Part shown: positions 1,370 to 49,460 of the stretch, in pieces
Position numbering within the stretch: the stretch's first letter is position 1
Layout of the letters: the number at the start of each line of letters is the position of its first letter
Source of the DNA: Candidatus Poribacteria bacterium
GTDB lineage: Bacteria; Poribacteria; WGA-4E; WGA-3G
Assembly: GCA_963663765.2 (NCBI GenBank)
Contig: CAXXUA010000003.1
Location: 512,001 to 576,000 of the forward strand
DNA: 64,000 bases
Direction: 5' to 3'
Notes under the pieces: generated by a model
The model's input: the letters and a program-made list of their open reading frames with translations, nothing else
Databases searched by the model: none
What the model was told of the DNA's origin: nothing
Translations under genes and position numbers: made by a program

Positions 1370-1610
1370 GGTAGACGTGCTTTGTATGCGCGCCACCGAT
1401 GGTAGGCGGGCTTTGTAAGCGCGCCACCGATGGTAGGCGGACTTTGTAAGCGCGCCACCGATGGTAGGCGGGCTTTGTAAGCGCGCCACCGATGGTAGGC
1501 GGGCTTTGTAAGCGCGCCACCGATGGTAGGCGGGCTTTGTAAGCGCGCCACCGATGGTAGGCGGGCTTTGTAAGCGCGCCACCGATGGTAGGCGGGCTTT
1601 GTAAGCGCGC
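1370..1610. repeat. Tandem array of 8 x 31-bp GTAG REP-like units (GGTAGGCGGGCTTTGTAAGCGCGCCACCGAT)
   Basis: Units start at 1370, 1401, ... 1587; near-identical, no spacers. Confidence 0.9.
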
Positions 1611-1858
1611 ATTCTTCTTTAGGCATTCCCCGCCTACCAGGGTGGGTTAGAAGGAATTACCAAATTTATTTATTAATCTTCATTTAGCTTGTGCAGATAT
1701 GGACACAAACTGAAAGTTTGTGCTACAAGATATAAGCTATTTATCAACATTTTTCTGATTATAGATGGTGTTTCTGGGTGTAAGTTTTTTAAGTAGCAAC
1801 TTGGACTATTATAGAATGTGCACTTAACCGACAATAGAATGCCTCTGGTTATCAGCAT

Positions 1859-10517: not shown

Positions 10518-10654
10518 TATAGTGGATTTTAGAATTATTCTTACACTTTCAGGTGTAGGAGGGAACTCCGATTCCCGACTATCAAGGCGTTCAGTTGTGA
10601 TTCGGAGATCGCTTCTACAGAAAACGTGTAAACTTAATTGTATATTTCACTATA
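10518..10654. mobile_element. MITE family T6 (TATAGTG...CACTATA; TA target, IS630-like) with inverted GTAG REP doublet
   Basis: Terminal inverted repeats; second copy in opposite orientation at 28537-28706. Confidence 0.7.
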
Positions 10655-15499: not shown

Positions 15500-15774
15500 T
15501 TTGATGGCAGTGGTTAATTATGGATTATTATGGTATTAATTACACACTTGCACAGGAAGAAGTGACCACTTGGTCGCAACCGTCCCCTGAGTGGTAGGAG
15601 CGACCCGGGCAAAGCCAAAAGGCATTCATTCCGTTGAGTTCTTGAGTTCTTGATTTGGTGCTTTGTAAACGCGCTGGTATGTCAAAACCCAAAGGGTATC
15701 TATTGATTATCTATTGGAAATTCCAATAAACAGACATTCAAAAAACTACAAAAACTACAAGAATTCATATATAA

Positions 15775-20856: not shown

Positions 20857-21612
20857 TACCATTTTCATGTGATAATGTCTCATTAGCAGCGGAAATCTGG
20901 TAGGAGTGACCTCACGGTCGCGACCGGCAAATCAACGGTATGAATGCCTTTTGGCATTCCCCGGTTCGCTCCTACCGAAGAGAGTAACCCCCTGCCAGTA
21001 AACAGTAGAATTCCTTAATCAATACCTTCGCCATTTTTGAGTGCTTCAGTTGAATGAGTATAATGTGTTGATCTACCATTGCTCTGTGATATTGTTAGGA
21101 TTACATAAATAAAAATAACTTCAGGTTTTCGTTGAAGTATTTTTATTTATCATAGCGTCTAATTTGACGATAGAATCTGACAGAATAATTTATATGCACA
21201 ATCTGGAAGAATGTGCTACAACTACACGCACAATCTGACAGAATGTCTATTATTGGCGAAGGTATTGCTTAATGAGACAAGATTTATTTGAGTTGGTATA
21301 ATACCATTTTCATATGATAATGTCTCATTAGCAGCGGAAATCTGGTAGGAGCGACCTCACGGTCGCGACCGGGAGGTCGCTCCTACCGAAGAGAGTAACC
21401 CCCTGCCAGTAAACAGTAGAATTCCTTAATGAGACAAGATTTATTTGAGTTGGTATTATAACATTTTCATGTGATAATGTCTCATTAGCAGCGGAAATCT
21501 GGTAGGAGTGACCTCACGGTCGCGACCGGGAGGTCGCTCCTACCAAAGAGAGTAACCCCCTGCCAGTAAACAGTAGAATTCCTTAATGAGACAAGATTTA
21601 TTTGAATTGGTA
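20857..21612. mobile_element. Three tandem copies of MITE family T4 (TACC...GGTA ends, TWA target) with REP doublets
   Basis: Units of ~155 bp joined by TAA/TTA; outer flanks TTA/TTA; single copy inverted at 26476-26629. Confidence 0.8.
21020..21267. mobile_element. 248-bp MITE (TIR CAATACCTTCGCCA) nested in the first T4 copy
   Basis: Perfect 14-bp TIR; 6-bp TSD CTTAAT; the neighbouring T4 copies show the empty site. Confidence 0.88.
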
Positions 21613-28430: not shown

Positions 28431-28536
28431 AACTTCTTGAACTTCCGGATACTTTTCAAAATAGAGTTCTATTGCCTCTTTCAGGTTTTCTACCGCCTCG
28501 TCTTCACTCTTACCCTGACTAGCAACATCTATCTCT

Positions 28537-28706
28537 TATAGTGAAATATACAAGTAAGTTTACACTTGTTCTGTAGGCGGGGAATGCCAATAGGCATTCA
28601 TACCGTTGATTTCGATCTCCGAATCGCGACTGAACGCCTTGATAGTCGGGAATCGGAGTTCCCTCCTACACCTGAAAGTGTAAAAATAATTCTAAAATCT
28701 ACTATA
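28537..28706. mobile_element. MITE family T6 with a micro-element inserted at 28578-28613
   Basis: Inverted homolog of 10518-10654, about 33 bp longer. Confidence 0.75.
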
Positions 28707-28838
28707 ACATTGAGCAACAAACATATCTCCTTCTTGCGAAATATTTGCAGTAAAAGTCTGTGATTTCATTATTCGTCTCCTTCAATATAACGTGGTATGA
28801 TATATCTAAATTGTAGCATCAAATGAGGAATGTTTCAA

Positions 28839-30077
28839 CTACTCATCAGTCTGTCCAGCAAGAGCAGCCGCACGCGCACCCACACCAAGTACACCCAGAA
28901 AACCCTCCGAATCCGAATGGTCAAAATCACCAATATCCTCCATTGATGACGTCTCTTCAGAGTAAAGGGAATGCGGAACACCCGTCGCAGCATGAAATGC
29001 AACATTACCTTTATATAGCGCAACCGTAATCGTCCCACTTGCCAAACGTGTGAACTGCTCAACCGATGCCAACATTGATTGCGTAGCAGAATCAAACCAG
29101 TAACCTTGATAGATCTGTTCAGCGACAGCAGACGCAATACCATCATAGAGTTTACGCGCCCGTCTATCCAAAATCAGTTGAAGGAGATACTCATAGCATT
29201 TACCCAACAACTCCATCCCAGGAGATTCATAGACACCCCGGCTCTTTATTCCAACAAATCGGTTTTCAACAGTATGTATGCCGATACCAACAGCGTTCCG
29301 TCCACCAATTCGGTTTGCTTCCATCAAACCCATCAGAGGTGTGCAAGGACTACCGTTTACTTCCACAGGCACTCCGCGCGCGAATGTCACAGTGAAGTGC
29401 TCTATATCATCAGGTGCATCTTTCGGATGCACTCCCATCCCCGGCGTAATGAATCCCGCAGGTGTTTTCAGTGATTCCAATCTACCTGCTTCATGCGTTA
29501 ATCCCAGCAAATTCGCATCCGTAGAATAAGGTTTTTCATGCGTCGCAGTAACTGGCAGACCGTGTTCTTGGCAGAAATCAATCATCTCCTTTCTACCACC
29601 GAACTGCTTGAGAAATGCCTCATCCCGCCAAGGCGCGTAAACTGAGAAATTTGGATTTAGCATATTGGTCGCAAGTTGAAACCGCACCTGATCATTTCCA
29701 CGACCCGTTGCACCGTGCGTCAAAATAGAGATGCCGCGACTTTCCATTTCAGGAAGTAACGCTTTCACCGTAACAAACCGAGCAATCCCTGTCGTGTTCC
29801 AATATCCGCCTTCATACATCGCCTTACACTGGATAACGCGAAGCCCCTCTTCAGCAAGTGCTTCCTTTGCATCAATGATGACCGCTTCCTGAGCACCACA
29901 TGCCAACATCCGTTCACGAATCTCGTCCACATCTCTCTCGTCAGGTTGTCCAAGATCCGCAGTAAAACATACGACATCAACACCTTTATCCACTAACCAT
30001 TTGGTAATTGTGCAGCTATCAAGTCCACCAGAGACCGCAGCTCCAACAGTTTTTCCAATTAATTTTTCTATTTTCAT
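28839..30077 (-). CDS. argG: Argininosuccinate synthase
   Basis: SGGLDS, HGATGRGNDQVRF, YSTDANLLG, ENRFVGIKSRGVYESPG. Confidence 0.93.
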   Translation of the reverse strand: MKIEKLIGKTVGAAVSGGLDSCTITKWLVDKGVDVVCFTADLGQPDERDVDEIRERMLACGAQEAVIIDAKEALAEEGLRVIQCKAMYEGGYWNTTGIARFVTVKALLPEMESRGISILTHGATGRGNDQVRFQLATNMLNPNFSVYAPWRDEAFLKQFGGRKEMIDFCQEHGLPVTATHEKPYSTDANLLGLTHEAGRLESLKTPAGFITPGMGVHPKDAPDDIEHFTVTFARGVPVEVNGSPCTPLMGLMEANRIGGRNAVGIGIHTVENRFVGIKSRGVYESPGMELLGKCYEYLLQLILDRRARKLYDGIASAVAEQIYQGYWFDSATQSMLASVEQFTRLASGTITVALYKGNVAFHAATGVPHSLYSEETSSMEDIGDFDHSDSEGFLGVLGVGARAAALAGQTDE

Positions 30078-30130
30078 AATCCAAATTATACCACTATTCC
30101 AACCAAAACGCAATTGCTAACAATTGTGTG

Positions 30131-30810
30131 GGGTGTGTAAACTTTTTTTCACAAGCATCCCACTCTCGATTGTAGGGCGAAATCAAGAAATCATGAAATC
30201 AACGGTATGAATGCCTTTTGGCATTCCCCGGGTATGAATGCCATTTAGGCATTCCCCGGGTCTCTATACCCCGCCGCAACTGATTAAATGAGAGATTGCG
30301 GACACAGAAGTCCTAATGAGTTTTGACGTTCAAGTTGTGTATTCGTAGGGGCGTGGTTTCCACACATGATCTACGCAAACTCAAAAACCAACCGGGTTGG
30401 GGAACCCAACCCCTACGAATTCAACTACCGATTTTGATTGCCAAACTTCATTAGGTGTCAATATAAAGAAATATTGTTAATATTAACCATATTCTTCAGT
30501 CGCGTAGGGACGATATGTTTATCCTTTTATGTCGTTCCTACGGAACTAAAGAGAGGGGATGTGATAACGTTTTTGCTATAAACATTGCGTCCCTACGGGA
30601 CTAAAGAGAACAAAAGTTTGTACCTCTGTGCAAAAACTTTACACACCATAGGCGTCAATTTAAGAAAAAGGTGTTGGCATTTTCTCTTGTGGGAGGGGTT
30701 TTCAACCCCGATTTTATGTTCATTTTCTCTCAAATCGGGGTTGAAAACCTCTCCTACAAGTGGTCAAAACCCTTAAATTGACGCCTATGGTGCAAAAACT
30801 TTACACACCC
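30131..30810. mobile_element. Nested MITE cluster: T2 ends, micro-elements (30179-30260), T5 (30317-30450) and T7 (30647-30789, TIR CATAGGCGTCAATTTAAG)
   Basis: Each component recurs elsewhere in the window. Confidence 0.75.
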
Positions 30811-30826
30811 ATCCGAAACAAAATAT

Positions 30827-30855
30827 TTGACACATACAGAAATATATGATAAACT
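30827..30855 (+). promoter_or_regulatory. sigma70-type promoter of gspG
   Basis: TTGACA-17 bp-TAAACT with an extended -10 TG. Confidence 0.55.
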
Positions 30856-30897
30856 TTTGAAGATATTGACACTATTGTAAAGCGCGGAGAAGCATAC

Positions 30898-31350
30898 GTG
30901 ACACTACAACATCCTAAACAAGACGGATTAACACTCATACAGATACTGATCGGTATTGCCATTCTGGGTGTGATCGGTGCTGTCCTTTTAGCACCTCGTC
31001 TACTTGGACAAGCAGGTAGAACACTACAAACACGAGCAAACGAGGATATTGAAACACTCGGTATCGCACTGGATAGATATGCAAATGACTGCGGAGATTA
31101 TCCCTCAACCGAACAAGGACTAAAGGCTCTTTGGGAGAAACCGCAAACACCACCAATTCCTATAGAATGGTTAGGCCCCTATATTCAAATTCCAATCACA
31201 ACTGATCCATGGGGAAACCCTTATGTCTATATACGTCCCGGCATCCATGACCGATACGGATACGACCTGCTCTCTTTCGGTAGTGACGGCTTAGAAGGGG
31301 GAACAGGGGACGGTGAAGACATCGCAAGTTGGATACGTCGTGATGAATAA
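30898..31350 (+). CDS. gspG: Type II secretion major pseudopilin GspG-like
   Basis: GLTLIQIL prepilin-like start (E5 replaced by Q), YPSTEQGLKAL, DPWGNPYVY, SFGSDG. Confidence 0.85.
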   Translation: MTLQHPKQDGLTLIQILIGIAILGVIGAVLLAPRLLGQAGRTLQTRANEDIETLGIALDRYANDCGDYPSTEQGLKALWEKPQTPPIPIEWLGPYIQIPITTDPWGNPYVYIRPGIHDRYGYDLLSFGSDGLEGGTGDGEDIASWIRRDE

Positions 31351-31427
31351 CAATCCATAATTAACAACAATCATATACCAATAGATGATAAAAAAAGATA
31401 CATACTAAAATATTAGGTATCAAAATT

Positions 31428-32432
31428 ATGAAAATTACCCAAATTGAAGTCATCAAGGTAAAAGTTCCCTACCATGAAGGTATTTATGAGTTAATGTCGC
31501 GTTGAAATCTATACCAAATTGACCACGTATATAAGGTGCATACAGATACAGGAATAATCGGTATCGGTGACGGTTCATTTCAATCAGACGAAACAATAAA
31601 ACGATACATCGGAAGGAATCCATTTGAATATATGAGCGGTTGGGCACCAACGCCTTTACAACAAGCATTTTATGACATTATGGGGAAAACTCTCGGTGTA
31701 CCTGTCCATCAACTCTTAGGGGAAAAGATTCATGATAAAACATCTTTCGGATATTGGTCTATTGACATGACACCAGACGAATGGGCTGCTGAAGCAAAAC
31801 ACGCTTATGCTCTCGGTTATCGTCTACACAAAATAAAAGCACGACCATGGTTTGAAGTTGCCGAACAGGTAGAAGCAATCACCGAAGTTGTACCCGACGA
31901 TTACCAACTACGTGTGGATGCAAACGACTCTTTTGAAACCGCAGCACGCACTATTGAAGTCGCACGACAACTACGCGACTATAATATAGAGTCGTTTGAA
32001 ACACCAATCCCACAATCACATATTGATGGATACAAGGAGATAAAACAACAAATAGACATCCCAATAACCATTCATTTCGGAAACCCAGATCCAGTTAAAG
32101 CAATCCGAGCAAAGATGAACGATTCATTCATTATCGCATATCCCGACTCACGCGCTGCCAATGCAAAACGGGAAGCAATAATCTCTGATTCAGCACATCT
32201 ACCTGTCTGGATACAGATAGTCGGGCTCGGTATCACAACATGTTATGTCATGCATCTCGCAGCAGTCATGCGTAATGCGACGATGCCATCAATTACACTA
32301 AACGCATTGCGCGCCTTTGACATCGTTACACCCTCAACGATACCTCTTGAAAACGGATACGCAACCATACCCGACAAACCGGGTTTAGGCGTTGAACTGG
32401 ACGAAGACACGTTAGACAACTGCCGATTTTGA
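31428..32432 (+). CDS. Mandelate racemase/muconate lactonizing enzyme family protein with in-frame TGA at 31503-31505
   Basis: MKITQIEVI start in frame with KVHTDTGIIGIGD, KIK, RVDAN, FETP and KPGLGVELDED. Confidence 0.8.
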
Positions 32433-32443
32433 TAAGTATGTAT

Positions 32444-33220
32444 ATGAAAAAAATAACTTTATTTTTATCCCTAACAATTCTTATCCAATGCACTATTATT
32501 ACCGCACATGCCGGAAAACTGGGATTAGTCAGCGCATGGCTTTTTGAAGAAAGAAACGGAACAGTAGCTAAAGATGTCGTCGGCAAGAATGATGGGGAAA
32601 TAATAGGAAAATTAAGCTGGTTTACTTACGGAAAATTTGGAAGATGTCTGAGATTCTTAGGTAACGCTGATAGTTACCTACGCATTCCTCACAATGATGT
32701 ATTCAACGCAGACCCCTACACATTCGTCGCTTGGGTCAAGTTAAAACCTGAATCATGGCAATATATCATCTGGAGAAACGGAGATGTGTGGCCCGAGCCC
32801 AAAGAAAATCGCCACATAGATATATGGATACACGCCGATGGATTTCCAGTTTTCATGTGGACCGCTGGTAACAATAGTGGTCAAATTGATGGAAAAACCA
32901 TTATCACTGATGATAAATGGCATCATATCGCTAAAGTCTATGATGGAAATAGTATAAAAATGTTCATTGATGGAATACTGGATACTGAAATGTCAAGTCA
33001 AGGCACACTGGATACAAATGAATCACCCATCTGGTTAGGTGCCAACCCTAACAACATCGCTGCAACCGGACTCTTCGACGAAGTCGGTTTCTTTACAAAT
33101 GTACTTACAAAGAATGAAATTAACGATGTCATGTCTATTGGATTAGCAGATTACGCCACTGTGGAAGCAACAGGAAAAGTTACAACAACTTGGGGCACAT
33201 TAAAAGGAGAAACAAAATGA
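32444..33220 (+). CDS. Secreted LamG/concanavalin A-like domain protein
   Basis: Signal peptide; WLFEE, DDKWHHIA, FIDG; tail GKVTTTWGTLK. Confidence 0.85.
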   Translation: MKKITLFLSLTILIQCTIITAHAGKLGLVSAWLFEERNGTVAKDVVGKNDGEIIGKLSWFTYGKFGRCLRFLGNADSYLRIPHNDVFNADPYTFVAWVKLKPESWQYIIWRNGDVWPEPKENRHIDIWIHADGFPVFMWTAGNNSGQIDGKTIITDDKWHHIAKVYDGNSIKMFIDGILDTEMSSQGTLDTNESPIWLGANPNNIAATGLFDEVGFFTNVLTKNEINDVMSIGLADYATVEATGKVTTTWGTLKGETK

Positions 33221-33984
33221 AAACAACTATAATTAGTTTGACAATACTTGTCATCATCGCAACTTCTTATGCACACGCAGTAAAACTTGGATTAGCAAGC
33301 GCATGGTTATTTGAAGAAAATGGTGGAAATGTTGTCAAAGACATTGTCAGTGGTCACGATGGTGATATCAACGGGTCTTTGACATGGGTCAATGACGGTA
33401 AATTCGGCAAAGCTTTGGACTTCCCTGGACAGGGTGATAGTTATGTCCGTATACCTCATAACGATGTATTCAACGCTGACCCTTACACTTTTGTCGCATG
33501 GGTCAAGTTACAAGAAGCCTCATGGCAGTATGTTGTCTGGCGGAATGGTGATGTTTGGCCCGAACCAAAAAACGTACGCCATCTCGATATCTGGATTCAT
33601 GAAAATGACTTTCCAGTCTTTATGTGGCACGCCAACGGTGTAGAAGGACGAATTGAAGGTAGTACGATCGTTGCTGATGGTGATTGGCATCACATCGCCA
33701 AAGTTTATGATGGGCAAAATGTGCAAATGTTTATTGATGGAAAATTAGAAGGTGAAAGTCCGAGTGGTGGAACACTTGACACTAGTGAATCACCAATTTG
33801 GATCGGGGCACGTCCCGGTCCCGTCGCCGCAACTGGTCTCTTTGACGAAGTCGGTTTTTTTACACAAGCACTAACTCATGATGAAATCAACGACGTAATG
33901 TCTATCGGATTAGCAGAATACGCCGCTGTAGAAGCAACAGGAAAAGCAACAACAACTTGGGGATTACTAAAGTCTAAAAAGTAA
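33217..33984 (+). CDS. Secreted LamG domain protein (tandem paralog)
   Basis: ATGA overlap and RBS AAGGAG; strongly similar to the upstream gene. Confidence 0.87.
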   Translation: MKTTIISLTILVIIATSYAHAVKLGLASAWLFEENGGNVVKDIVSGHDGDINGSLTWVNDGKFGKALDFPGQGDSYVRIPHNDVFNADPYTFVAWVKLQEASWQYVVWRNGDVWPEPKNVRHLDIWIHENDFPVFMWHANGVEGRIEGSTIVADGDWHHIAKVYDGQNVQMFIDGKLEGESPSGGTLDTSESPIWIGARPGPVAATGLFDEVGFFTQALTHDEINDVMSIGLAEYAAVEATGKATTTWGLLKSKK

Positions 33985-34032
33985 TAGTCGCACGCACTAC
34001 GCGTGCATAAACAGAAATGGAGAATACGTTCT

Positions 34033-35451
34033 ATGCAAATGCATGTTGGTGGAAAATGGATTGACAAGTCAAATAAAATTGATGTCTTAAGTCCTTTTGA
34101 CGGTTCAGTTGTTGACACCGTTCCAAAAGGAGACGCAAGCGACGTTGAAACCGCTATTCAGACCGCAGAACGCGGCGCAAAGATCATGGCAGACCTAACT
34201 GGTTATGAACGTTATGAAATCTTACGAAAAGTCGCTGATTTGATGGTGGAAAAAGCAGGTGAATTGGCAGAAGTTATCACCCGTGAAGAAGGAAAAATAA
34301 TAGCCGAGGCAACCGGCGAAGCAACACGCGCTTCAGAAATCATCGCACTCTCTGCTGAGGAAGCAAAACGTCTAACAGGTGAAACAATCCCACTTGAAGG
34401 GGCACCTGGCGTAAAAAACAAACTTGGGTTCACTGTACGCGTACCTTGCGGTATCGTTGCTGGAATTAGTCCTTTCAACTTTCCACTACACCTTGTATGC
34501 CACAAAGCAGGTCCAGCAATTGCCGGTGGAAACGCTATCATCATCAAACCCGCAACGGATACACCCCTCTCTGCACTAAAATTAGTTGAACTCTTCTTAG
34601 AAGCAGGCACACCACCAGAAGCAATTCAGTGTGTTACAGGTCCAGGTGGTGAAATCGGTGATACACTCTGTGCAGACCGGCGCGTCAGAAAAATCACTTT
34701 CACTGGCAGCCGGGATGTCGGAGAACACATCTGTAAAGTTGCAGGATTAAAACGGGTCACTATGGAACTCGGCTCCAACTCGCCCCTCATCGTTATGCCC
34801 GATGCGGACCCAGAGAAGGTCGCACGTGCTGCAGCCGCATCAGGTTATTCCAACGCTGGACAAGTCTGTATCTCAACGCAACGTGTCATCGCTCACGAAA
34901 AAATATATGCGGATTTCTTGGATGCGTTCAAAGCAGAAGTTTCACAAATAGGCATCGGTAACCCACTGGAAGACGGAGTCCGTATGGGACCGATGATTAG
35001 AGAAGGAGACGCAACACGTGTCACCGAATGGATTAACGAAGCAGTATCAGATGGTGCAGAACTCCTCATGGGAGGCGAAAAACATGACCAGTTTGTCACA
35101 CCTGCAATCCTCGCAAACGTCAAACCTGAGATGAAAATCTCTTGTGATGAAATCTTCGGGCCCGCTGTCGGTGTGACGCGTGTCAACGACATTGACGAAG
35201 CAATTGCACTCGCAAACGACACGAACTACGGCTTAAGTGCAGCCATCTTCACACAAAACATTGATTGGGCAATGCGGTTTGTCCGTGAAGTTGATTCTGG
35301 TAACCTCATGGTCAACTGGGGTACACAGTGGCGCGCAGACCTTATGCCTTATGGTGGTGTGAAAGAAAGCGGGATGGGAAAAGAAGGTCCAAAATACGCC
35401 ATTGAAGAAATGACTGAACTCAAAATGGCTGTCTTCCACTTGGATAATTAG
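34033..35451 (+). CDS. Aldehyde dehydrogenase family protein
   Basis: PFNFP, FTGS, MELGSN, GQVCIS, EIFGP, PYGGVKESG. Confidence 0.93.
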   Translation: MQMHVGGKWIDKSNKIDVLSPFDGSVVDTVPKGDASDVETAIQTAERGAKIMADLTGYERYEILRKVADLMVEKAGELAEVITREEGKIIAEATGEATRASEIIALSAEEAKRLTGETIPLEGAPGVKNKLGFTVRVPCGIVAGISPFNFPLHLVCHKAGPAIAGGNAIIIKPATDTPLSALKLVELFLEAGTPPEAIQCVTGPGGEIGDTLCADRRVRKITFTGSRDVGEHICKVAGLKRVTMELGSNSPLIVMPDADPEKVARAAAASGYSNAGQVCISTQRVIAHEKIYADFLDAFKAEVSQIGIGNPLEDGVRMGPMIREGDATRVTEWINEAVSDGAELLMGGEKHDQFVTPAILANVKPEMKISCDEIFGPAVGVTRVNDIDEAIALANDTNYGLSAAIFTQNIDWAMRFVREVDSGNLMVNWGTQWRADLMPYGGVKESGMGKEGPKYAIEEMTELKMAVFHLDN

Positions 35452-35473
35452 TAATGAGATATTTTGAATTTAA

Positions 35474-35506
35474 CACATTAGGTGCTTGATTCCAGCACCT
35501 AATGTG
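35474..35506 (+). terminator. Perfect 13-bp hairpin after the ALDH gene (possible terminator)
   Basis: CACATTAGGTGCT-7 nt-AGCACCTAATGTG; no clear U-tract. Confidence 0.45.
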
Positions 35507-35552
35507 ATAGGAAAACAGATTCTCCTTACAAGGTCTAATACCCAAATAACGT

Positions 35553-35921
35553 CAGGACTTACGCAGTTTTCATGATCCAATCAAGAATTAAGACGAAAAC
35601 GATGTAATTTTCAGCATTTTTTTGGTTTCCGGCGCGCTTACAAAGCACGTCTACCATTGGGGGCGCGCATACAAAGCACCAAATCAACGGTATGAATGCC
35701 ATTTAGGCATTCCCCGCCTACCATTGGGGGCGCGCTTACAAAGCACCAAATCAACGGTATGAATGCCATTTAGGCATTCCCCGCCTACCATTGGGGGCGC
35801 GCTTACAAAGCACGCCTACCATTGGGGCGCGCTTACAAAGCATCAAATCAAGAAATCAAGAAATCAACGGTATGAATGCCATTTTGGCATTCCCCGCCTA
35901 CCGTTTAATGCGTAAGTCCTG
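35553..35921. mobile_element. MITE family T3 with amplified REP units, three of them carrying the micro-element
   Basis: Perfect TIRs; 5-bp TSD AACGT. Confidence 0.88.
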
Positions 35922-35961
35922 AACGTAATCCGTTTTGGTAGGTGAGGTATCCTAACCGTAA

Positions 35962-36138
35962 TAAAAGTGTCAATTTAAGAAAAAAGTGTTGGTGTTTCTA
36001 TTGTGGGAGGGGTTTTCAACCCCGATTTGAGAGGAAAAGCGCATAAAATCCAAATCAACGTCAGAAGCGCGTTTGGCTTCTGTCGGGGTTGAAAACCCCT
36101 CCCACAATACGTCAAAATACTTAAATTGACGCTTATGG
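35962..36138. mobile_element. MITE family T7 (GTCAATTTAAG ends) with GTGGGAGGGGTTTTCAACCCC doublet
   Basis: Homologous to 30647-30789. Confidence 0.65.
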
Positions 36139-36250
36139 TGTGGTTACCTAACCGCATTTGTCTTCAACAGAACAAGGTAAATCCTGTTAATATGATATGA
36201 TAGGATAGGATCACTTCAAATTAGTTTTGTTCTATCGTTCGGGATCTTTT

Positions 36251-36400
36251 TCAGTCTTGGTCTTTCTCACGATTACCGATTAACTTATCCAAATGATCGC
36301 TAATCTCACCAATCGTCTTATATATTCGGTCTAACGCTAATGTAATACCGAGCAATCCCATTGAAAGCACTACAATTCCAATACCAACTACAATTTCCAT
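36251..36400 (-). CDS. 49-aa single-TM small protein (absent from the ORF track)
   Basis: MEIVVGIGIVVLSMGLLGITLALDRIYK...; AAGGAG upstream. Confidence 0.5.
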   Translation of the reverse strand: MEIVVGIGIVVLSMGLLGITLALDRIYKTIGEISDHLDKLIGNREKDQD

Positions 36401-36435
36401 TTCAACACATTACTCCTTACTGATGAAAACTCTCA

Positions 36436-36648
36436 CAGGACTTACGCAGTTTTCATGATTTAATGAAGAATTATGACAAAAATGGTGTAATTTTCAGCAT
36501 TTGTTCGGTTTCCAGCGCGCTTACAAAGCGCGCCTACCGTTAGGTGCGTAATACCGAATTAACGTGAGTCGTCTTGCTAAGTGTGCGGTTAGGAAACCGC
36601 ACCTACCGTTGGAAAAAGATAAATTACGTTAATTTGGTATAAGTCCTG
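36436..36648. mobile_element. MITE family T3 with an 88-bp element (36552-36639) inserted in its right TIR
   Basis: 5-bp TSD TCTCA; inner element has TACC/GGTA ends and a TAA duplication. Confidence 0.85.
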
Positions 36649-36662
36649 TCTCAAATTGATGT

Positions 36663-37469
36663 TTACCACTGCACTTGACAGAATTCCTCGTAATCAATTA
36701 GTTCCGTTATCGTCCGATTCTCACCACACATTGCACAATCATCTTGTTGACGGAGTTTCAGTCGTTTGAAGTCCATTGACAAAGCGTTAAAAAGAAGGAG
36801 GGTACCAATCAAAGATTCACCAATGTCAAGCAGGATTTTTATTGCTTCAACAGCTTGAATTGTACCGATGATACCGGGTAACACACCGAACACACCAGCC
36901 TCTTGACAGTTTGGCACCATGCCTGGTGGTGGCGGTTCAGAAAATATGCAGCGATAACACGGCCCCTTCCCAGGATAAAGCACGGTGACTTGTCCCTCAA
37001 ACTGAGAAATGCTACCATGCACAATCGGCTTACCAAGCATCACGCACGCATCGTTCAGCAGATAACGTGTAGGAAAATTGTCACATCCATCCACAATCAG
37101 ATCGTACTGTTCCAGCAACGTAAAAGCATTCTCAGAACTGATACGATCATTGTGCGGGATAACCTTTACATCCGGATTCATCTCAGCAATCGTTGCTGCT
37201 GCAGACTTCGTTTTTGGTATACCGATATCACTTGTACCATGCAGTATCTGACGTTGTAGATTGCTGAGGTCAACCACATCGTCATCCACAATACCGAGTG
37301 TGCCAACTCCCGCGGCAGCAAGGTAAACACCGATAGGCGAACCGAGACCTCCTGCACCAATTAGCAACACTTTGGACTCAAGCAGCTTCGTCTGCCCCAT
37401 GCCACCGACTTCATCAAGAATAATATGGCGACTATATCGCTCAATCTGTTCGTTGGTAAAATTATACAT
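36663..37469 (-). CDS. moeB: MoeB/ThiF-family adenylyltransferase (no rhodanese domain)
   Basis: ERYSRHI, GAGGLG, SNLQRQ, DGCDNF, CYRC, CAMCG. Confidence 0.88.
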   Translation of the reverse strand: MYNFTNEQIERYSRHIILDEVGGMGQTKLLESKVLLIGAGGLGSPIGVYLAAAGVGTLGIVDDDVVDLSNLQRQILHGTSDIGIPKTKSAAATIAEMNPDVKVIPHNDRISSENAFTLLEQYDLIVDGCDNFPTRYLLNDACVMLGKPIVHGSISQFEGQVTVLYPGKGPCYRCIFSEPPPPGMVPNCQEAGVFGVLPGIIGTIQAVEAIKILLDIGESLIGTLLLFNALSMDFKRLKLRQQDDCAMCGENRTITELIDYEEFCQVQW

Positions 37470-37470
37470 A

Positions 37471-38049
37471 CTATCCTCTAAGATTGGAGAGAAGTTCTGA
37501 AATCGGCTTTTCGGAATTCGCAGAGATTCGCACAGCAAAACGTTCACGCGCATCCTCTGAAGTGCGTTCTATCTTGAAACCATCATTACCATACATCTGT
37601 TGTAACATAGGTTCAAGGTCTGCCTGAATGGCTGCTGCAGTATCCGCAGTATTTGGAGCAAGGTTGCGATTGTTTATCATAAATAAAATGTCAGAAACAT
37701 TGAATTGGATAGCGTTTTCCAATTCCGCCGATGCTTCAAGAAGCTCACATTTTGATAGCACTTCCGTGAATGCTTGACGAATCTTCTCGGCATTTTCACC
37801 ATCCACTTCATGTTTCCGGTTGTAAAGAAATCCCGGTTCATGAAATGCGTTGTCAATGCTATAATTCGCTTGCTTCAAAATCAATAACACACCCGGACCA
37901 GCATCCACATGCGAATAGTCCGCATAGTTCAAATAATCATCAGAATCTGCCTCCTCCATCCAGCGGTTGAAGACTTTGATGAAGTTCGTATAGTTGACCG
38001 TACTATCTTCGGTCACAAAAACCTTAATATTTATCTGCTGTAAATCCAT
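37471..38049 (-). CDS. Hypothetical protein, closely linked to moeB
   Basis: 192-aa ORF with ADYSHVDAGPGVLLI motif; stop 1 nt before the moeB ATG. Confidence 0.75.
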   Translation of the reverse strand: MDLQQINIKVFVTEDSTVNYTNFIKVFNRWMEEADSDDYLNYADYSHVDAGPGVLLILKQANYSIDNAFHEPGFLYNRKHEVDGENAEKIRQAFTEVLSKCELLEASAELENAIQFNVSDILFMINNRNLAPNTADTAAAIQADLEPMLQQMYGNDGFKIERTSEDARERFAVRISANSEKPISELLSNLRG

Positions 38050-38121
38050 TCGATGAAACGTTCCTTTCGTGAAAAGACTGTTAGATAGAGGAGCCTACCT
38101 GGGGTAAAAAATAAGAATCAA

Positions 38122-38367
38122 TCATGCAAGCGATAATTCACTAACGTTTTGTCCATCAACACTTACAACGGTAACATCCTCCGCATCTATCCAAAAAACC
38201 TTACCCGCACTATCGCATACACAAACCATAGCATATTGTCCTTCGTCTACTTCAGCCATCAAATTCCCTAAAAAGAAATGGGGTTTTTTGGACTGAAATG
38301 CACCGAATCCTGTACCGAGTAAGCAATAAGTTTTGCTTGTCGTGTCATGTCTTACAATCGTTGCCAT
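38122..38367 (-). CDS. Small hypothetical protein
   Basis: RBS AAGGA; 81 aa. Confidence 0.7.
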   Translation of the reverse strand: MATIVRHDTTSKTYCLLGTGFGAFQSKKPHFFLGNLMAEVDEGQYAMVCVCDSAGKVFWIDAEDVTVVSVDGQNVSELSLA

Positions 38368-38400
38368 ATATATTCCTTTAAGTATTATTTTCTAAGGTAT

Positions 38401-38700
38401 TTAACTTGGAACCCATATCTTTTTCGCTTGTACTACTTCAGCATCGGACGGTAACTTAATGGGTACTTCCGATTTACAATAGAAGTGCAGCCCCTTGTAG
38501 TTCGTAAGGTACTGATGGTTTTTTGTAAAAACACCACCCAATGCTGTCACAACAAGTGGTGCTTCACTCTTTGACATAATTTTCATAAACTCCTCTGGTT
38601 CAAGCCGAATGATTGCTCCAGAGGCTTTGATAGCCTGTACAATCGCTGCGGCAGCAGCCGTTGAACCACCCGCAGCAACACCTGCTTCTGCACCTGTCAT
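38401..38700 (-). CDS. Small hypothetical protein
   Basis: Likely ATG at 38700; Ala-rich N-terminus followed by AIKASGAII...YLTNYKGLHFY. Confidence 0.7.
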   Translation of the reverse strand: MTGAEAGVAAGGSTAAAAAIVQAIKASGAIIRLEPEEFMKIMSKSEAPLVVTALGGVFTKNHQYLTNYKGLHFYCKSEVPIKLPSDAEVVQAKKIWVPS

Positions 38701-38842
38701 GAGTATACACCCCACTGTTATGCTATAAGTTATTACATAGGCAAAAACAACATCACACTCTGATTCTTTATTATAATGCAAGTTGATAGTTAAGTCAATT
38801 CTTATTTCTCATCACTTCCCTATTCAATACATCTTAAAATAT

Positions 38843-38961
38843 CAGGGTTATTCAGTTTTAGGTAATTTAGCTGTTTCGTGAGAAAATCGCGGCCGGGAGG
38901 TCGCTCCTACCGGGTGGTTATTTTTTTAAAATTCAATTATTAGGAAAACTGAATAACCTTG
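38843..38961. mobile_element. MITE family T1, short 119-bp form with one REP
   Basis: TIRs; perfect 9-bp TSD TTAAAATAT. Confidence 0.9.
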
Positions 38962-39031
38962 TTAAAATATTGATAAAAAACACATATTTTGCTAAATTAA
39001 ACCATCACACATTTTCAAAAAGGAGCAATGT

Positions 39032-40072
39032 ATGTTAAATTGGGGAGTTATAGGAGCAGGTGGCATCGCTTACGTATTCTGTAACGGAATGCGTTTTACC
39101 GACACAGGTCAAATCTGCGCAATGGCAAGCCGCACAAAAAATAAGGCAGACAGATTCGTCAATGACTTTGAAATTCCACGCCAATACAGTACCTACGAAG
39201 AACTCTTAGCAGACGACGAAATTGACGCAGTTTATATCGCTACAATACACCCACTCCACGCGGAGTTGGCAATCAAAGCTGCCAAAGCAAAGAAACATAT
39301 TCTGGTAGAAAAACCGATCAGTATGAGTCACACCGAAGCAACAGCAATGGTTGACGCTGCCCGTGAAAATGACGTATTTCTGATGGAGGCATTTATGTAC
39401 CGTTGCCACCCGCAAATACAGCGCATGGTGGAACTCATACAAGATGGAGAAATCGGGGAAGTCCGCTATATCCGATCTACATTCGGATTTCAATCTAACT
39501 TCAATCCACAAAGCCGTCTTTTCAATCGTGAAATGGGAGGTGGTGGTATCCTGGACATCGGATGTTATACTGCATCAATGGCACGAAAAGTCGCTGGGGC
39601 AGCCGCAGGTGAGTTGTTCTTAAATCCGATCTCGGTCAAAGCAAATGGAAAAGTAGGGCCCACAGGGGTTGACCATATCACAACCGCGACACTCAAATTT
39701 GAGAACGATATTATCGCTGAAATAGCAACTGCAGTGGAGTGTAACCTCGGCAGCAGCACTACCATCATCGGTTCTGGTGGAACGATAACGATCCCAAATC
39801 CATGGCTACCATCATCACCATGCCGCGGCGCACGTAAACCTTTGCCACCAGATACAACTATTCCACCAAGTCAAATAGTCCTAAACTCCTATCAACGTAG
39901 AGAAACAACCGAGATCACCATTGAAGCAGACAGAGACCTCTTTACCTACGAAGCAGACATGGTCGCGAACCATATCTCACAACGACAAGCACCGGCAATG
40001 TCATGGGACGACACACTCGGAAATATGCTACTATTAGACAAATGGCGTGACGAAATCGGTGTTGCGTATTGA
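39032..40072 (+). CDS. Gfo/Idh/MocA-family oxidoreductase
   Basis: WGVIGAGGIA, HILVEKP, GGGILDIGCY. Confidence 0.92.
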   Translation: MLNWGVIGAGGIAYVFCNGMRFTDTGQICAMASRTKNKADRFVNDFEIPRQYSTYEELLADDEIDAVYIATIHPLHAELAIKAAKAKKHILVEKPISMSHTEATAMVDAARENDVFLMEAFMYRCHPQIQRMVELIQDGEIGEVRYIRSTFGFQSNFNPQSRLFNREMGGGGILDIGCYTASMARKVAGAAAGELFLNPISVKANGKVGPTGVDHITTATLKFENDIIAEIATAVECNLGSSTTIIGSGGTITIPNPWLPSSPCRGARKPLPPDTTIPPSQIVLNSYQRRETTEITIEADRDLFTYEADMVANHISQRQAPAMSWDDTLGNMLLLDKWRDEIGVAY

Positions 40073-40117
40073 CATCGATAACAGTAAACCAAATCACAAC
40101 AAAACCGGAAAAATACT

Positions 40118-40891
40118 ATGCTACCAATATGTTACGACCCTTATGTAGGTACATTAGGAAGATTTTCACGTGCAGAAATCTTTGACCTCGTCGCTGATGC
40201 AGGATACGAAGGCATTAACATTCCTGTCAATACAGCTTTTCTCGGTAAACTTTCAACCGCAGAAATAAAGGACGCAGTGAAACTCGCTCAGAAGCACAAC
40301 CTCATCGCTCCCACAATAGGTTTTGGAAACCATATCTTGACAACACCTACGCAAAAAGATGCAGCACTAAAGCATTTTGCAACCGTGCTTGAAGTGGCAC
40401 GTCAGTTTAACGCAGAGATTATCGGTGTTTGGGTGAATCCATCACAAGGTGTGTCGCGTCAAGACTCTTTGGAAACACTTGCAGAGAACTTGTCTCAAAT
40501 GCTCCCACCATGTCAGGAACACAACATCAAAATTGCTCTTGAATTCCAAAAGGGATGTCCTCTTGATAACTATAGAGAAGCTGTTACATTTATTTCAGAT
40601 ACCGACTTACCTGTTTATTTGACATGCGACACCTACCATCTATTCAACGACGGTGCAGATCCGCATGCTGCAGCATTCACTATGCAGGAGTGTTTGGGAG
40701 ATGTTCATATATCAGGAAGCAATCGTAGTGAACCATGGAGCGGAATATTTGACTTTGAGACCTTCGCAAAAGGTTTGAAGGAGATCAACTATACAGGACC
40801 CTTGGTCATCCAGTATAAAATGGAAGATGTTGCAAGCATAAAACGTAGTTGTGAATTCACACAGCAGTTTCGCGAGATGATGCAATCATAA
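40118..40891 (+). CDS. Sugar phosphate isomerase/epimerase (xylose isomerase-like TIM barrel)
   Basis: AGYEGI, IALE, DTYH, VHIS, INYTGPL. Confidence 0.82.
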   Translation: MLPICYDPYVGTLGRFSRAEIFDLVADAGYEGINIPVNTAFLGKLSTAEIKDAVKLAQKHNLIAPTIGFGNHILTTPTQKDAALKHFATVLEVARQFNAEIIGVWVNPSQGVSRQDSLETLAENLSQMLPPCQEHNIKIALEFQKGCPLDNYREAVTFISDTDLPVYLTCDTYHLFNDGADPHAAAFTMQECLGDVHISGSNRSEPWSGIFDFETFAKGLKEINYTGPLVIQYKMEDVASIKRSCEFTQQFREMMQS

Positions 40892-40921
40892 ATCGTAAGA
40901 TTTTCTCGGTTCCTTCAATTG

Positions 40922-42337
40922 TTAATTCAATAGGCGTTCAACTTCTGTTGCAATTTCGGGATCTATTTCTTTAAGAAGTTGAGTACCTTTAACTCCAGGA
41001 TGCCGTGTTGTGATCTCATAAGCGCGAACAATACGTTCAGGTTCAAACAATAAGTCTTTACCTTTAAGATGAGCATCTATCTCTCTTACGAGAAAATTGT
41101 TTCTGTCAAAAAAGTATCCTTTTTTTGCGATACCATTGATCCAATCCCGGAATTGATAAAACTCCTGGATTTCTCTTTTCTGCTCTGCATTAGCAGCCAA
41201 AAAAGTTCGAACTCTACGATTGCCTTTACCGTTTGGATTGGGTAATGTACGAATCTCTGATTTCCAGAAATCTCCGCTTTCAATAGCATACATATTATCG
41301 CTATCAATATAAACAGATAATATACAAATTCGAGGAGGAGGAAATCTTCTTTTTCTTTTTTCTTCACGATTCCGAAGTGTTACACTCTTTTTGTAGCAAA
41401 ACCATGCAGTTTTGAGATCACCGAGTTTTTCATAAGCTATACCTAAGCTGACGAGTCCAATTGAAGCATCAAGTCGATTCGCTTTATTGAGGTATACAAT
41501 CGCATCTTCCGGTGATTTTTCAAGCAGACGGTATCCTAACGCACTAAGCGTATTCGGATGATTGGGGTGCTTCGTGAGAATTTGGTGGTATCGATCAATG
41601 ACTTTAGTCTCATCTTTTTCATCACGCACCAAATATAATAATGCATCAGGGTTGTCCGGATCTTTAGCAAGGAGTTGGTCAACATAAGCTTTTACTATTT
41701 TCATGTATCTGGTTTCTGACAAAGATACAGATACTGTGTTGAGGTATTTAAATGCACGGCGAGACTCCAGTTTTTCTAAAATATCCGGGTGATAGATGTA
41801 TTGCGATTCAAGGAAGTCAACAGCATAATCAAGGTCTATCTTTCCCCGAGAATACATATTCATTATATATATAGAATGTCTTTCTGGATCTGATGATGAC
41901 AAATATGCATGAATATCCAGATTAACTTGTAGGGTTGGTTCTATTGCCTTAACATCCAATGGTAAAGATGGAAGATTAAAATCGTTGACATAGGATTGTT
42001 GTGAATGCTCTTGTGAGATTAGACGTCTTGGATCTATTGCATTAACATCCATTGGTAAAGATGACGGCTGTGCCCCGTTGACATAAGATTGTTGTGAATG
42101 CTCAGTAGGAATGACCTGTTGACGTACGTTCTGTTTGACCAACATAGGTCGTCTATTAAGTGTTTTATTAGTCTGTTGTTCTTCATGTAAGGAAGAATCA
42201 GTTTCTACTTGTTGACTTATACTTGGAATTGTCACAACATTTTTAGGTTCTGTCATCTTTTTCCAAAGCGCAATGACACCAATTACCAGAACACAGATGC
42301 AAATTATACTCATAAGTACTTTGAGAATATTTGACAT
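40922..42337 (-). CDS. Membrane-anchored TPR-like protein
   Basis: N-terminal TM; PDNPDALL, LSALGY and LGIAYEKLGD...A...Y TPR motifs. Confidence 0.7.
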   Translation of the reverse strand: MSNILKVLMSIICICVLVIGVIALWKKMTEPKNVVTIPSISQQVETDSSLHEEQQTNKTLNRRPMLVKQNVRQQVIPTEHSQQSYVNGAQPSSLPMDVNAIDPRRLISQEHSQQSYVNDFNLPSLPLDVKAIEPTLQVNLDIHAYLSSSDPERHSIYIMNMYSRGKIDLDYAVDFLESQYIYHPDILEKLESRRAFKYLNTVSVSLSETRYMKIVKAYVDQLLAKDPDNPDALLYLVRDEKDETKVIDRYHQILTKHPNHPNTLSALGYRLLEKSPEDAIVYLNKANRLDASIGLVSLGIAYEKLGDLKTAWFCYKKSVTLRNREEKRKRRFPPPRICILSVYIDSDNMYAIESGDFWKSEIRTLPNPNGKGNRRVRTFLAANAEQKREIQEFYQFRDWINGIAKKGYFFDRNNFLVREIDAHLKGKDLLFEPERIVRAYEITTRHPGVKGTQLLKEIDPEIATEVERLLN

Positions 42338-42383
42338 AGTACACCTACTGCAACTTGATGATGGTACCTTTATAAATTGTAAG

Positions 42384-44582: not shown

Positions 44583-44584
44583 CC

Positions 44585-48142: not shown

Positions 48143-48509
48143 CAGGGTGTGTAAAGTTTTCAATTTATTGAGTAAAATTTTATCACAGTCGCTTGTCCTT
48201 GAGTTAGCTTATTTTTGGGAGTTAACTCATTCTTTGTCTGAACCAGGATTTTCAGGATTACCAGATTTTCAGGATTTACCTCGTCAAGGGTTTTTGATAT
48301 GTGTTTATGCCCTCTTTTGGAATAGGATCTGATGAGAAATATCTTGATAATCTACTAATCCCGGTGAATGCCATAAGGCATTCATACCGTTGATTTGAAA
48401 ATCCTAGTTCAGACCAAAATCAAGAATACCATAAAAATCCTATATAATTGCTAATCTTAACCCAAAGTTAACTGGCATTACGATATATTCTTAAGACTGA
48501 ATAACCCTG
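48143..48509. mobile_element. T1-related MITE with a T2-like left end; contains a micro-element at 48361-48397
   Basis: Body homologous to 15111-15499; left end CAGGGTGTGTAAAGTTTT. Confidence 0.7.
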
Positions 48510-49460
48510 CCTTTTTAGCGTTTGCTATCTCCCTTTATATTTCCGTGCTACAATAACCTTTTATCAGGGTTATTCAGTTTTAGGGATTTTAGCTGTTTCC
48601 TGAGAAAATCGCGACCGGGAGGTCGCTCCTACCGCGTGGTTATTTTTTTGAAAAATTCAAACATTAGGTAAACTGAATAAAACTGCCTTTTTAGCGTTTA
48701 CTATCTCCCTTTATATTTCCGTGCTACAAAAACCTTTTATCAGGGTTATTCAGTTTTAGGGATTTTAGCTGTTTCCTGAGAAAATCGCGACCGGGAGGTC
48801 GCTCCTACCGCGTGGTTATTTTTTTGAAAAATTCAAACATTAGGTAAACTGAATAAAACTGCCTTTTTAGCGTTTACTATCTCCCTTTATATTTCCGTGC
48901 TACAAAAACCTTTTATCAGGGTTATTCAGTTTTAGGGATTTTAGCTGTTTCCTGAGAAAATCGCGACCGGGAGGTCGCTCCTACCGCGTGGTTATTTTTT
49001 TGAAAAATTCAAACATTAGGTAAACTGAATAAAACTGCCTTTTTAGCGTTTACTATCTCCCTTTATATTTCCGTGCTACAAAAACCTTTTATCAGGGTTA
49101 TTCAGTTTTAGGGATTTTAGCTGTTTCCTGAGAAAATCGCGACCGGGAGGTCGCTCCTACCGCGTGGTTATTTTTTTGAAAAATTCAAACATTAGGTAAA
49201 CTGAATAAAACTGCCTTTTCAGCGTTTACTATCTCCCTTTATATTTCCGTGCTACAAAAACCTTTTATCAGAGTTACTCAGTTTTAGGTATTTTAGCTTT
49301 TTTCTGAGAAAATCGCGACCGGCAAATCAAGAAATCAACGGTATGAATGCGCGTATGGCATTCACCGGGTATGAATGCCTGTTGGCATTCCCCGGGTCGC
49401 TCCTACCGCGTGGTTAATTTCTTTGAAAAATTCAAACATTAGGAAAACTGAATAACCCTG
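48510..49460. repeat. 5 x 176-bp tandem repeat (short T1 MITE + ~55-bp flank)
   Basis: MITE starts at 48565, 48741, 48917, 49093, 49269; the last copy is diverged and has nested micro-elements. Confidence 0.9.

Follow-up and report, generated by a model that had tools for sequence, protein, structure and literature searches.

A family of very small nested repeat modules in a Poribacteria lineage that may spread by homology-guided copying among host hairpins

Among the repeats described so far, the small dispersed repeats (SDR elements) of Nostoc come closest to the sequences treated in this study. The SDR elements of Nostoc punctiforme and its relatives were reportedly described by Elhai et al. 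in 2008, and they are said to nest in one another and in mini-transposons, some of them sharing a compensated hairpin. In the citing passages of later papers, SDR elements appear as units of about 20 bp that occur in tandem in variable number and are possibly mobile (PMC2884548), one of which, SDR5 of Nostoc, was inserted precisely between nucleotides 3 and 4 of the HIP1 octamer (PMC4390886). Where SDR elements come from had not been settled by 2011 (PMC3116915), and the passages of 2011 and 2015 treat both origin and insertion as open (PMC3116915, PMC4390886). GTAG-tagged repetitive extragenic palindromes (REPs) have also been described (PMC3733652). Here we report on a unit of about 35–36 nt in a stretch of 64,000 nucleotides from a Candidatus Poribacteria bacterium (assembly GCA_963663765.2, contig CAXXUA010000003.1, positions 512,001 to 576,000), which is hereafter called the window. 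The unit represents a family of nested repeat modules of very small size that inhabits a single Poribacteria lineage, made up of two sister genera. In kind, the family is closest to the SDR elements of Nostoc, and the data point to neither an enzyme of the Y1/REP-associated tyrosine transposase (RAYT) type, a reverse transcriptase nor an IS110 enzyme. In a limited literature search on palindromic repeats in Poribacteria, the titles listed concern CRISPR or general genomics.

The unit is built from two modules, a leader, (N)AAATCAA(G/C), present one to six times, and a hairpin, GGTAT-GAATGCC-loop-GGCATTC-CCC, present one to seven times. An array thus begins with a variable first base (mostly C), continues with at least one octamer AAATCAA(G/C), and ends with at least one hairpin unit composed of the GGTAT foot, the 7-bp stem GAATGCC/GGCATTC, a loop of 4–5 nt and the CCC tail, with G connecting tandem hairpin units. 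The core motif, GGTATGAATGCC-N3-7-GGCATTC, matches the window exactly nine times, all at places where an earlier interpretation of the letters alone (the sequence-only reading) had put it, against none in 100 dinucleotide shuffles, and a grammar scan resolves the content of the window into nine arrays and one 3′ remnant. The source genome (G000; 6.35 Mb in 15 contigs, with a G+C content of 0.39–0.44 by contig) holds 412 exact cores, 708 hairpin units when two mismatches per arm are permitted, and 524 arrays, the commonest forms of which are one leader with one hairpin (n = 267), two with one (n = 89) and two with two (n = 66). The largest arrays reach 6 leaders and 7 hairpins, and at C6:362483-362758 the complete 36-nt unit is repeated eight times in tandem. 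On either strand the 36-nt unit folds into a 7-bp hairpin (−6.9 and −7.0 kcal/mol; z −3.75 and −3.51). Arrays avoid genes, as had been claimed: 18 of the 524 (3.4%) fall in open frames of at least 200 aa, compared with 2231 of 3000 random sites (74.4%), and these 18 include open frames that span G+C-rich tandem repeats, as well as one false motif match in a real gene. The unit has no terminal inverted repeats, and a search of the entire window against Rfam gave no match at gathering score.

The unit thus resembles SDR elements in being very small, dispersed, highly repeated and extragenic, and, as SDR5 is described to do in HIP1, it is inserted precisely inside other short palindromic repeats, so that the elements are nested. 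It differs from them, as far as the descriptions in the citing papers allow a comparison, in coming from a different phylum with a different sequence, in its length of 35–36 nt, in its construction from an octamer leader and a footed hairpin that can each be repeated, and in its hosts, which are REP-type hairpins, a miniature inverted-repeat transposable element (MITE) and long palindromes. Like REP and REPIN sequences (PMC3116915, PMC3733652), it is a short, extragenic, non-coding hairpin with a 5′ foot and a high copy number, but its tag is GTAT, not GTAG or CGTC (the foot GGTAT is exact in 452 of the 708 units), it does not form inverted doublets or flank RAYT genes, it is abundant in genomes without a detectable RAYT, and it lies inside REPs and not beside them. 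The BOX elements of pneumococci are likewise modular with one module variable in copy number, although to our knowledge they do not occur as nested inserts in other repeats.

The nesting is most compact at positions 35553..35921 (+) of the window, where a copy of the 122-nt MITE, with the ends read from the sequence as CAGGACTTACGC ... GCGTAAGTCCTG, is enlarged to 369 nt by an internal duplication of the REP1 hairpin and by three arrays. The first (35680..35715, +) consists of C, the leader AAATCAAC, one hairpin with the loop ATTTA and CCC, and interrupts the 3′ arm of the REP1 hairpin at ACAAAGCAC^GCCTACC, where the caret marks the insertion point. An identical array (35747..35782, +) sits in the next REP1 copy of the tandem, and a third (35844..35895, +), in which three leader octamers precede a single hairpin (loop ATTTT), occupies the REP1 hairpin that lies at the MITE's right end. 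The same cluster contains empty REP1 sites, ACAAAGCACGTCTAC at 35640..35654 (+) and, between filled copies, ACAAAGCACGCCTAC at 35805..35819 (+). The empty REP1 site ACAAAGCRCGYCTRC occurs seven times in the window, these two included, and the empty REP2 site GCGACCRGGAGGTCGC 17 times, in agreement with the earlier claim that empty sites are present there. A further palindromic repeat (GGGGTTTTCAACCCCGA.. / ..TCGGGGTTGAAAACCCC; window 36040-36100 and 35975-36100) adjoins the MITE cluster, and about 170 nt surrounding this repeat are also present at other places in the genome.

The other arrays of the window lie in a variety of hosts. An array of one leader and one hairpin (20928..20962, +; loop TTTT) is placed in the loop of the REP2 hairpin at GCGACCGG^GGTTCGCTCCTACC, and one of two leaders and two hairpins, the first loop of the GCGTATG type and the second TGTT, is also found in a REP2 hairpin (49324..49393, +). 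A REP3-type repeat carries an array with the loop TATT at GGAGATCG^GCCTACAG (28579..28612, −), for which the empty paralogous site GGAGATCGCTTCTACAG exists at ~10604..10620 (+). Three leader octamers, one of them degenerate, and two tandem hairpins (loops TTTT and ATTTA) make up the array at 30180..30257 (+), which interrupts a long palindromic repeat in its 5′ arm (TTGTAGGGCG^GGGTCTCT), and an array with the loop TTAT lies in a GGATTTTC^GGGATT repeat (48363..48396, −). The grammar scan and the sequence itself support these assignments, together with folds for the arrays at 35680, 20928 and 30180. The scan also recovered a degenerate array at 15607..15656 (−) with REP1 as its left and REP2 as its right flank, a chimeric junction, and at 1609..1631 (+) the sequence shows a 3′ hairpin remnant (..TTTAGGCATTCCCC) adjoining GCCTACC. 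All the loops named in the sequence-only reading were seen.

Across the source genome, the 422 arrays that have host junctions can be sorted into 86 junction classes; empty forms also exist for 27 of these, which hold 356 arrays. The earlier claim that every copy lies inside another repeat therefore stands for those 356, while the remaining 66 arrays, in 59 classes, lack an empty counterpart by the criteria used. The insertion sites are many and independent: at least 11 distinct host sites exist in both filled and empty forms, and the view that several unrelated hairpins are hit is borne out, also by other hosts in other Poribacteria. Foremost are the first REP1 site, ACAAAGCAC^GCCTACCGTT (filled 134 times, empty 219 times), the loop of a related hairpin, CAAATGCGC^GTATGGCATT (62 and 72), TTCCAGCGC^GCTTACAAAG (38 and 140), the second REP1 form, ACAAAGCAC^GCCTGCAGG (25 and 301), CGCGACCGG^GAGGTCGCTCC (23 and 413), TCGGAGATC^GCTCCTACAGAA (18 and 122) and TTGTAGGGC^GGGGTCTCTGT (14 and 23). 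The set is completed by three sites of the GGATT type, by the other REP2 hairpin, where there is a second site, by a host related to CAAATGCGC^GTATGGCATT, and by TCGTAGGTC^GGGTAGAGCG. By fold, the insertion point is in the stem of REP1, as had been proposed for REPs in general, but loops are also hit, in REP2 and in the related hairpin family that shares the leader. The unit is thus separable from its hosts and is found in many unrelated hairpin repeats, both in stems and in loops.

The insert does not vary between AAATCAA and CATTC-CCC, and the base that follows it is nearly always G. A flanking direct repeat of at least 4 nt is absent in 412 of the 422 arrays, and the remaining 10 are to be set against about 5 in re-paired controls, which agrees with the absence of a target-site duplication stated before. 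Insertion is clean in three hosts, REP1, the loop of the related hairpin and the long palindrome, while in others one to three target bases are lost or altered, so that the small junction edits noticed earlier are real and, moreover, systematic. In the REP2 loop, for example, the A of the empty GGGA is lost after insertion; in REP3 the empty GCTCCTAC becomes G[..]GCCTAC; and at MITE site a the empty GCTTAC becomes GCCTAC. In other Poribacteria, where empty counterparts were found for three of seven hosts tested, small target losses occur too, in the middle parts of ACCCCCTAAA-TC-CCCCTTATC, GGAGTTC-CCT-CCTACA and GGAAACCGC-A-CCTACC. The left flanks are diverse (..GCAC, ..GCGC, ..GATC, ..CCGG, ..TTTC and ..CTAAA), and 5′ of the insertion no tetra- or pentanucleotide is conserved. 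We considered base pairing between loop and target as a guide and dropped the idea, the loops being made of A/T only and the target flanks being G+C rich. Neighbouring arrays no more than 200 nt apart have the same orientation in 106 of 111 pairs and opposite orientations in 5. Chimeric arrays, such as that at 15607-15656 with its REP1 left and REP2 right flank, and those in four MITE copies with the left flank of site a and the right flank of site b, show that arrays also recombine with one another.

Several further repeats are entangled with the unit. A sister family has the same AAATCAAC leader with a different foot and loop (..GCC[GA]AATGCGC-GTATGGCATT..; 140 copies by the 5′ pattern) and, for example at G000:C15:471843 and C6:316074, is among the commonest hosts of the unit. 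The hairpin of the unit is itself a target, in that 69 units bear a nested small hairpin (CATGG..GCCATACGC..) in the stem-loop, as at G000:C3:7998 and C4:34111, with triple-level nesting in a few cases; the remnant at window 1609-1631 is noted with them. A leader and 5′ arm without a nearby 3′ arm were found in 66 units, which are interrupted by further small repeats (the CATGG.. hairpin and the ATGAAGATTAAT.. element), and no ORF-bearing body that could represent an autonomous version was present among these 66.

The MITE offers a test of how arrays reach their sites. It is 122 nt long, its inverted ends measure 12 nt, and a REP1-like hairpin lies close to one of them. Of 186 parsed copies, 108 have a 5-bp target duplication and 123 one of at least 5 nt; the unit, in contrast, has neither the terminal inverted repeats nor the target duplication of a DDE-type MITE. 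Arrays enter the MITE at site a, CCAGCGC^GCTTACAA, or site b, AAAGCAC^GCCTACC. Of the 186 copies, 48 are occupied at b alone, 25 at a alone and 14 at both sites, and the other 99 are empty. For the backbone tests, 175 copies were used after 11, whose inserts were not arrays of the unit type, had been dropped. Copies filled at site a (n = 34) are no closer to one another than shuffled labels would make them (nearest-neighbor share 0.182 versus 0.188; 507 of 1000 shuffles reach it), and those filled at site b (n = 52) are weakly clustered (0.443 versus 0.296; 38 of 1000 shuffles). Pairs of single-nucleotide polymorphisms (SNPs) in the backbone have a mean r2 of 0.12–0.17 at all distances, which means that MITE sub-families are intact, and between insertion state and SNPs r2 stays under 0.06 in most cases. 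The two sites are filled independently (10 doubly filled copies versus 10.1 expected from the margins). Because the filled state is uncoupled from the MITE backbone in this manner, the gain of arrays must have followed the dispersal of the MITE copies and must have happened many times.

The loop variant tracks the host site with a purity of 0.709, where shuffling of the labels gives 0.362 (never above 0.395 in 2000 shuffles): the commonest last loop is ATTTA at the first REP1 site (87 of 134), ATTAA in the loop of the related hairpin (47 of 62), TTTT at MITE site a (36 of 38), TATT in REP3 (17 of 18, the other one being CTTT) and the GCGTATG type at the second REP1 form (18 of 25). A transposase with access to all donors would put the abundant ATTTA into site a as often as TTTT, which is not what is seen. 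A flank base also travels with the insert. At position +3 after the insert in site a, C is present in 88% of filled copies (28–30 of 34 when counted by eye) but in 1% of empty ones (1 of 141), and other flank bases differ less sharply between filled and empty copies (65% versus 22% at +12, 15% versus 42% at −5), while distant markers differ little. Empty copies have T at +3, as does the corresponding repeat of other species; since they carry the ancestral base, their origin by deletion from a filled ancestor does not fit. Taken together, the site-matched variants and the co-transferred flank base suggest homology-guided copying and not the action of a transposase on a common pool of donors. 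The REP3 host behaves differently, because its filled copies are mutual nearest neighbors by their flanks (0.556 versus 0.118; 0 of 500 shuffles), which indicates plain amplification of a larger repeat that was already filled.

The exact motif was found at 80 or more loci in species genomes. Among the matches listed, 78 come from Candidatus or uncultured Poribacteria records, and the remaining two from an “uncultured bacterium” and from an Alphaproteobacteria metagenome-assembled genome (MAG), where the longer loop led us to take the match for chance. The source genome, itself a MAG, therefore belongs to a lineage of sponge symbionts and is not cyanobacterial. When the leader-plus-hairpin pattern was counted, with 104 species genomes for the two element-bearing genera, the element was present in 38 of the 39 further species of the genus and in 55 of the 65 from the sister genus, compared with none of seven genomes from four other genera of the family and, as a single copy, 1 of 65 from other families of the phylum. 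Copies per genome within the genus range from 0 (G003) to 368 (the source genome). Exact REP1 copies number 0 in 17 of the 39 other genomes of the genus, and genomes without exact REP1 can be rich in the element (G024, 158 copies; G001, 87; G016, 192; G023, 170). In other genomes the unit is seated in quite different hairpin hosts, with AAATCAAC or GAATCAAC as leader. REP1 itself has 909 exact copies in the source genome and at most 82 in any other genome of the genus, and forms a long tandem array with a 32-nt period at G000:C2:50450-51302.

Leader, foot and basal stem are near-invariant across the two genera, and variation is confined to the loop and the apical stem, where it is compensated. 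In other genomes 25 units in seven distinct forms have compensated apical stems versus seven units changed in one arm only, and the source genome has 45 compensated units in two forms, so that the stem, which had been read from the window as conserved, is maintained by compensatory changes. Single variants have also expanded in bursts in single species, an example being the compensated stem GAACGCC/GGCGTTC in G021. That leader, foot and basal stem hardly vary implies that something reads the structure, as DNA or as RNA, and this strong conservation across two genera suggests a trans-acting factor.

Between related species the number of copies can differ more than tenfold. In the trio G021, G050 and G053, which are about 95% identical at one compared locus, there are 69, 94 and 5 copies, and two intergenic loci hold wholly different repeat cargo in each genome (L171-L175), without a clear-cut gain or loss of a 36-nt unit. 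G016 and G045, the nearest to the source genome in the compared loci (87–94% identical in genes), are without the whole repeat clusters that hold the arrays of the window. Logan contigs of the runs X1, X2, X6 and X7 over window 28451-48450 stop at the repeat clusters, none spanning an array. The trio also provided a 1.37-kb segment in G021 (L166:15887-17253, G021:C1), which is altered and has extra sequence in G050 and corresponds to 11 nt in G053. An array-bearing palindromic repeat borders it on each side, the two copies being direct, and the segment is possibly a mobile cassette; its 240-aa ORF has no Pfam match and occurs also elsewhere in G053.

On these observations we favor a two-tier, homology-guided model, to which we would give about an even chance of being right. 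In the first tier, a short patch made up of the insert and a few adjoining bases of the flank, its outer edge being ragged, would be copied from a filled into an empty copy of the host, the host repeat serving as the homology; this would happen within one host-repeat family, over and over, after its dispersal, by ectopic gene conversion or by template switching at forks stalled by hairpins. In the second, a rare illegitimate landing through microhomology would place an array in a new hairpin at a C/G^G step with the loss of 0–3 target nucleotides, which would found a new lineage and would explain the small target losses, and some lineages might then be multiplied passively by the spread of their host repeat. 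The first tier recalls the homing of group I introns and inteins, in which an insert is copied from a filled into an empty homologous site with co-conversion of flanking markers. The analogy is functional only: the unit likewise shows filled-to-empty copying with co-conversion of the flank, but it is about 36 nt long and has no endonuclease gene, and donor and recipient are dispersed repeats, not alleles.

Several points weigh against this model. Gene conversion and independent insertion by a site- or variant-specific enzyme look the same within one genome, and among the compared species, which are 86–96% identical at the compared locus and differ by whole repeat clusters, no pair of filled and empty states was found at an orthologous unique locus. 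The backbone tests cover 175 of the 186 parsed MITE copies, and the parse required conserved anchors, so that diverged copies are missing from them. GC skew in 50-kb bins is weak and irregular in sign on all large contigs, and no replichores are visible against which the replication-strand bias predicted by fork-based models could show. The absence of Y1 genes, given below, refers to six-frame hidden Markov model (HMM) and protein searches of MAGs that are 92–97% complete, and the copies of the element there could be relics. Moreover, the exact conservation of the unit across genera is not expected from general host recombination alone, and for this reason a dedicated enzyme is a possible candidate.

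Such an enzyme would be a new type of nuclease or recombinase that recognizes the leader together with the foot and basal stem and places the unit in folded hairpins, at C/G^G steps, with the site-matched variants arising from local or lineage effects. The near-identity of these parts across the two genera, the dozens of unrelated hairpin hosts across genomes and the bursts of single variants in single species, such as that in G021, would all follow from it. A candidate gene, however, was not found, the interrupted units offered no ORF-bearing version, and the matching of variants to sites together with the co-transfer of the flank base requires an extra assumption, so that we hold this explanation to be rather doubtful. 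Equally tentative is a more radical form of the copying model, in which the unit is a self-propagating DNA module without a transposase of known kind that spreads by biased, homology-guided patch copying. According to this idea, empty host hairpins would break or stall replication and then be repaired from a filled copy elsewhere; as the insert splits the host stem, filled sites would escape the next round, which would amount to a “homing” drive based on host repair alone, and a microhomology version of the same patch copying would seed new hairpin hosts. If this were true, hairpin repeats would serve a hyperparasite as habitat and engine alike, and a mechanism would be on offer for the unsolved SDR class.

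The sequence-only reading had ascribed mobilization to an HUH Y1 enzyme, RAYT or the TnpA of the IS200/IS605 family, which would recognize the GGTAT-footed hairpin and cut and paste the unit in trans as a nonautonomous, single-stranded element. Insertion sequences of this family are inserted without target duplication, are recognized through hairpin DNA, possess two distinct end hairpins and have a target word 5′ of the insert. The unit shares with them the lack of a target duplication and the association with hairpins, which are also its targets, and its GTAT foot resembles the GTAG foot of REPs. It departs from them in having one type of hairpin, no fixed 5′ target word and junctions that lose 0–3 nt and are thus not exact; moreover, its arrays do not form inverted doublets, only 5 of the 111 close pairs being opposite in orientation. 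The source genome does have six Y1_Tnp matches, four IS605-type TnpA copies and two RAYT-like genes near REP3 and REP1 arrays, but none of the six loci is flanked by the unit, and the ends of the TnpA copies are unrelated to it. Across the 40 genomes of the genus, six-frame searches with Y1_Tnp at E ≤ 1e-5 found nothing in G024 (a single contig; 158 copies of the element), G001 (87), G010 (112), G046 (19) and G042 (37), and a RAYT protein query had no match in G024, G001 and G010, whereas Y1_Tnp matches are present where the element is absent or scarce (3 in G003, with 0 copies; 20 in G009, with 3). Since the site-matched variants and the co-transferred flank base also speak against it, we regard mobilization by a Y1 enzyme as unlikely.

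As to these genes themselves, the four TnpA copies are near-identical (G000:C5:688634, C3:287718, C5:550867 and C5:353059), one of them being cut short, and the second long ORF behind the three full copies probably encodes TnpB. The RAYT-like gene of 159 aa at G000:C4:621661-621987 (L101) is situated between REP3-type hairpin arrays, and a frameshifted RAYT-like fragment lies at a contig end behind tandem REP1 units (G000:C10:25146-25277, L102); the two look like the cognate REP-RAYT pairs of the REP3 and REP1 host families. The IS110 family is known for inserting into REPs, but its DEDD transposase domain, PF01548, had no match in any of the 40 genomes of the genus, while control genomes matched.

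A further alternative is that the unit is a structured site of service to the host, for example a protein-binding site or an RNA hairpin signal, that selection maintains and recombination spreads. Conservation with compensatory changes and the extragenic location accord with such a role, as does a leader that is one base off what we take to be the consensus of Escherichia coli IHF. Against this stand copy numbers that range from 0 to 368 within a genus, with 5 and 69 in two species that share about 95% identity at one compared locus; the copies also lie inside other repeats, not at fixed places relative to genes, and have no Rfam match in the window, and we consider this explanation quite improbable. 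Pure hitch-hiking, by which a few single entries were multiplied through the mobility of their hosts while the unit had none of its own, is less probable still. It would account for the clustering of REP3-host copies by their flanks, for the long identical flanks common to many arrays and for loop variants that track the host class, but it has to contend with at least 11 host sites in the source genome and different hosts in other species and with the presence of the element where REP1 is absent, and the independence of the two MITE sites from each other and from the backbone already contradicts it for that host. Retro-insertion, in which a small hairpin RNA is reverse-transcribed into nicked hairpins with a precise 3′ and a variable 5′ junction, would suit the constant 3′ end (..CCC G) and the variable first base and octamer number at the 5′ end but is scarcely credible, as RVT_1 at E ≤ 1e-5 had no match in the source genome, with its 368 copies, or in G024, G001, G017 and G023. 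With none of the six Y1 loci flanked by the unit either, the suggested search for a Y1, RAYT or reverse transcriptase gene flanked by the unit came back empty in the source genome.

Mobile DNA shorter than about 50 nt is barely understood, and the unit described here shows SDR-like behavior in a second, unrelated lineage. What the present study adds on the mode of spread is the matching of variants to sites, the co-transfer of a flank base, and the lack of a link to Y1, reverse transcriptase or IS110 enzymes. The first two are testable signatures of homology-guided copying, and they argue against the default assumption that HUH enzymes must move hairpin elements that lack target duplications. 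The carriers are uncultivated sponge symbionts, and the 104 species genomes in the two genera form a dataset large enough to separate hitch-hiking, recurrent site-specific gain and jumps to new hosts. For the genomes of these symbionts, the arrays have two consequences: they break short-read assemblies of Poribacteria at every cluster, and they inflate the intergenic turnover between species that are about 95% identical at a compared locus.

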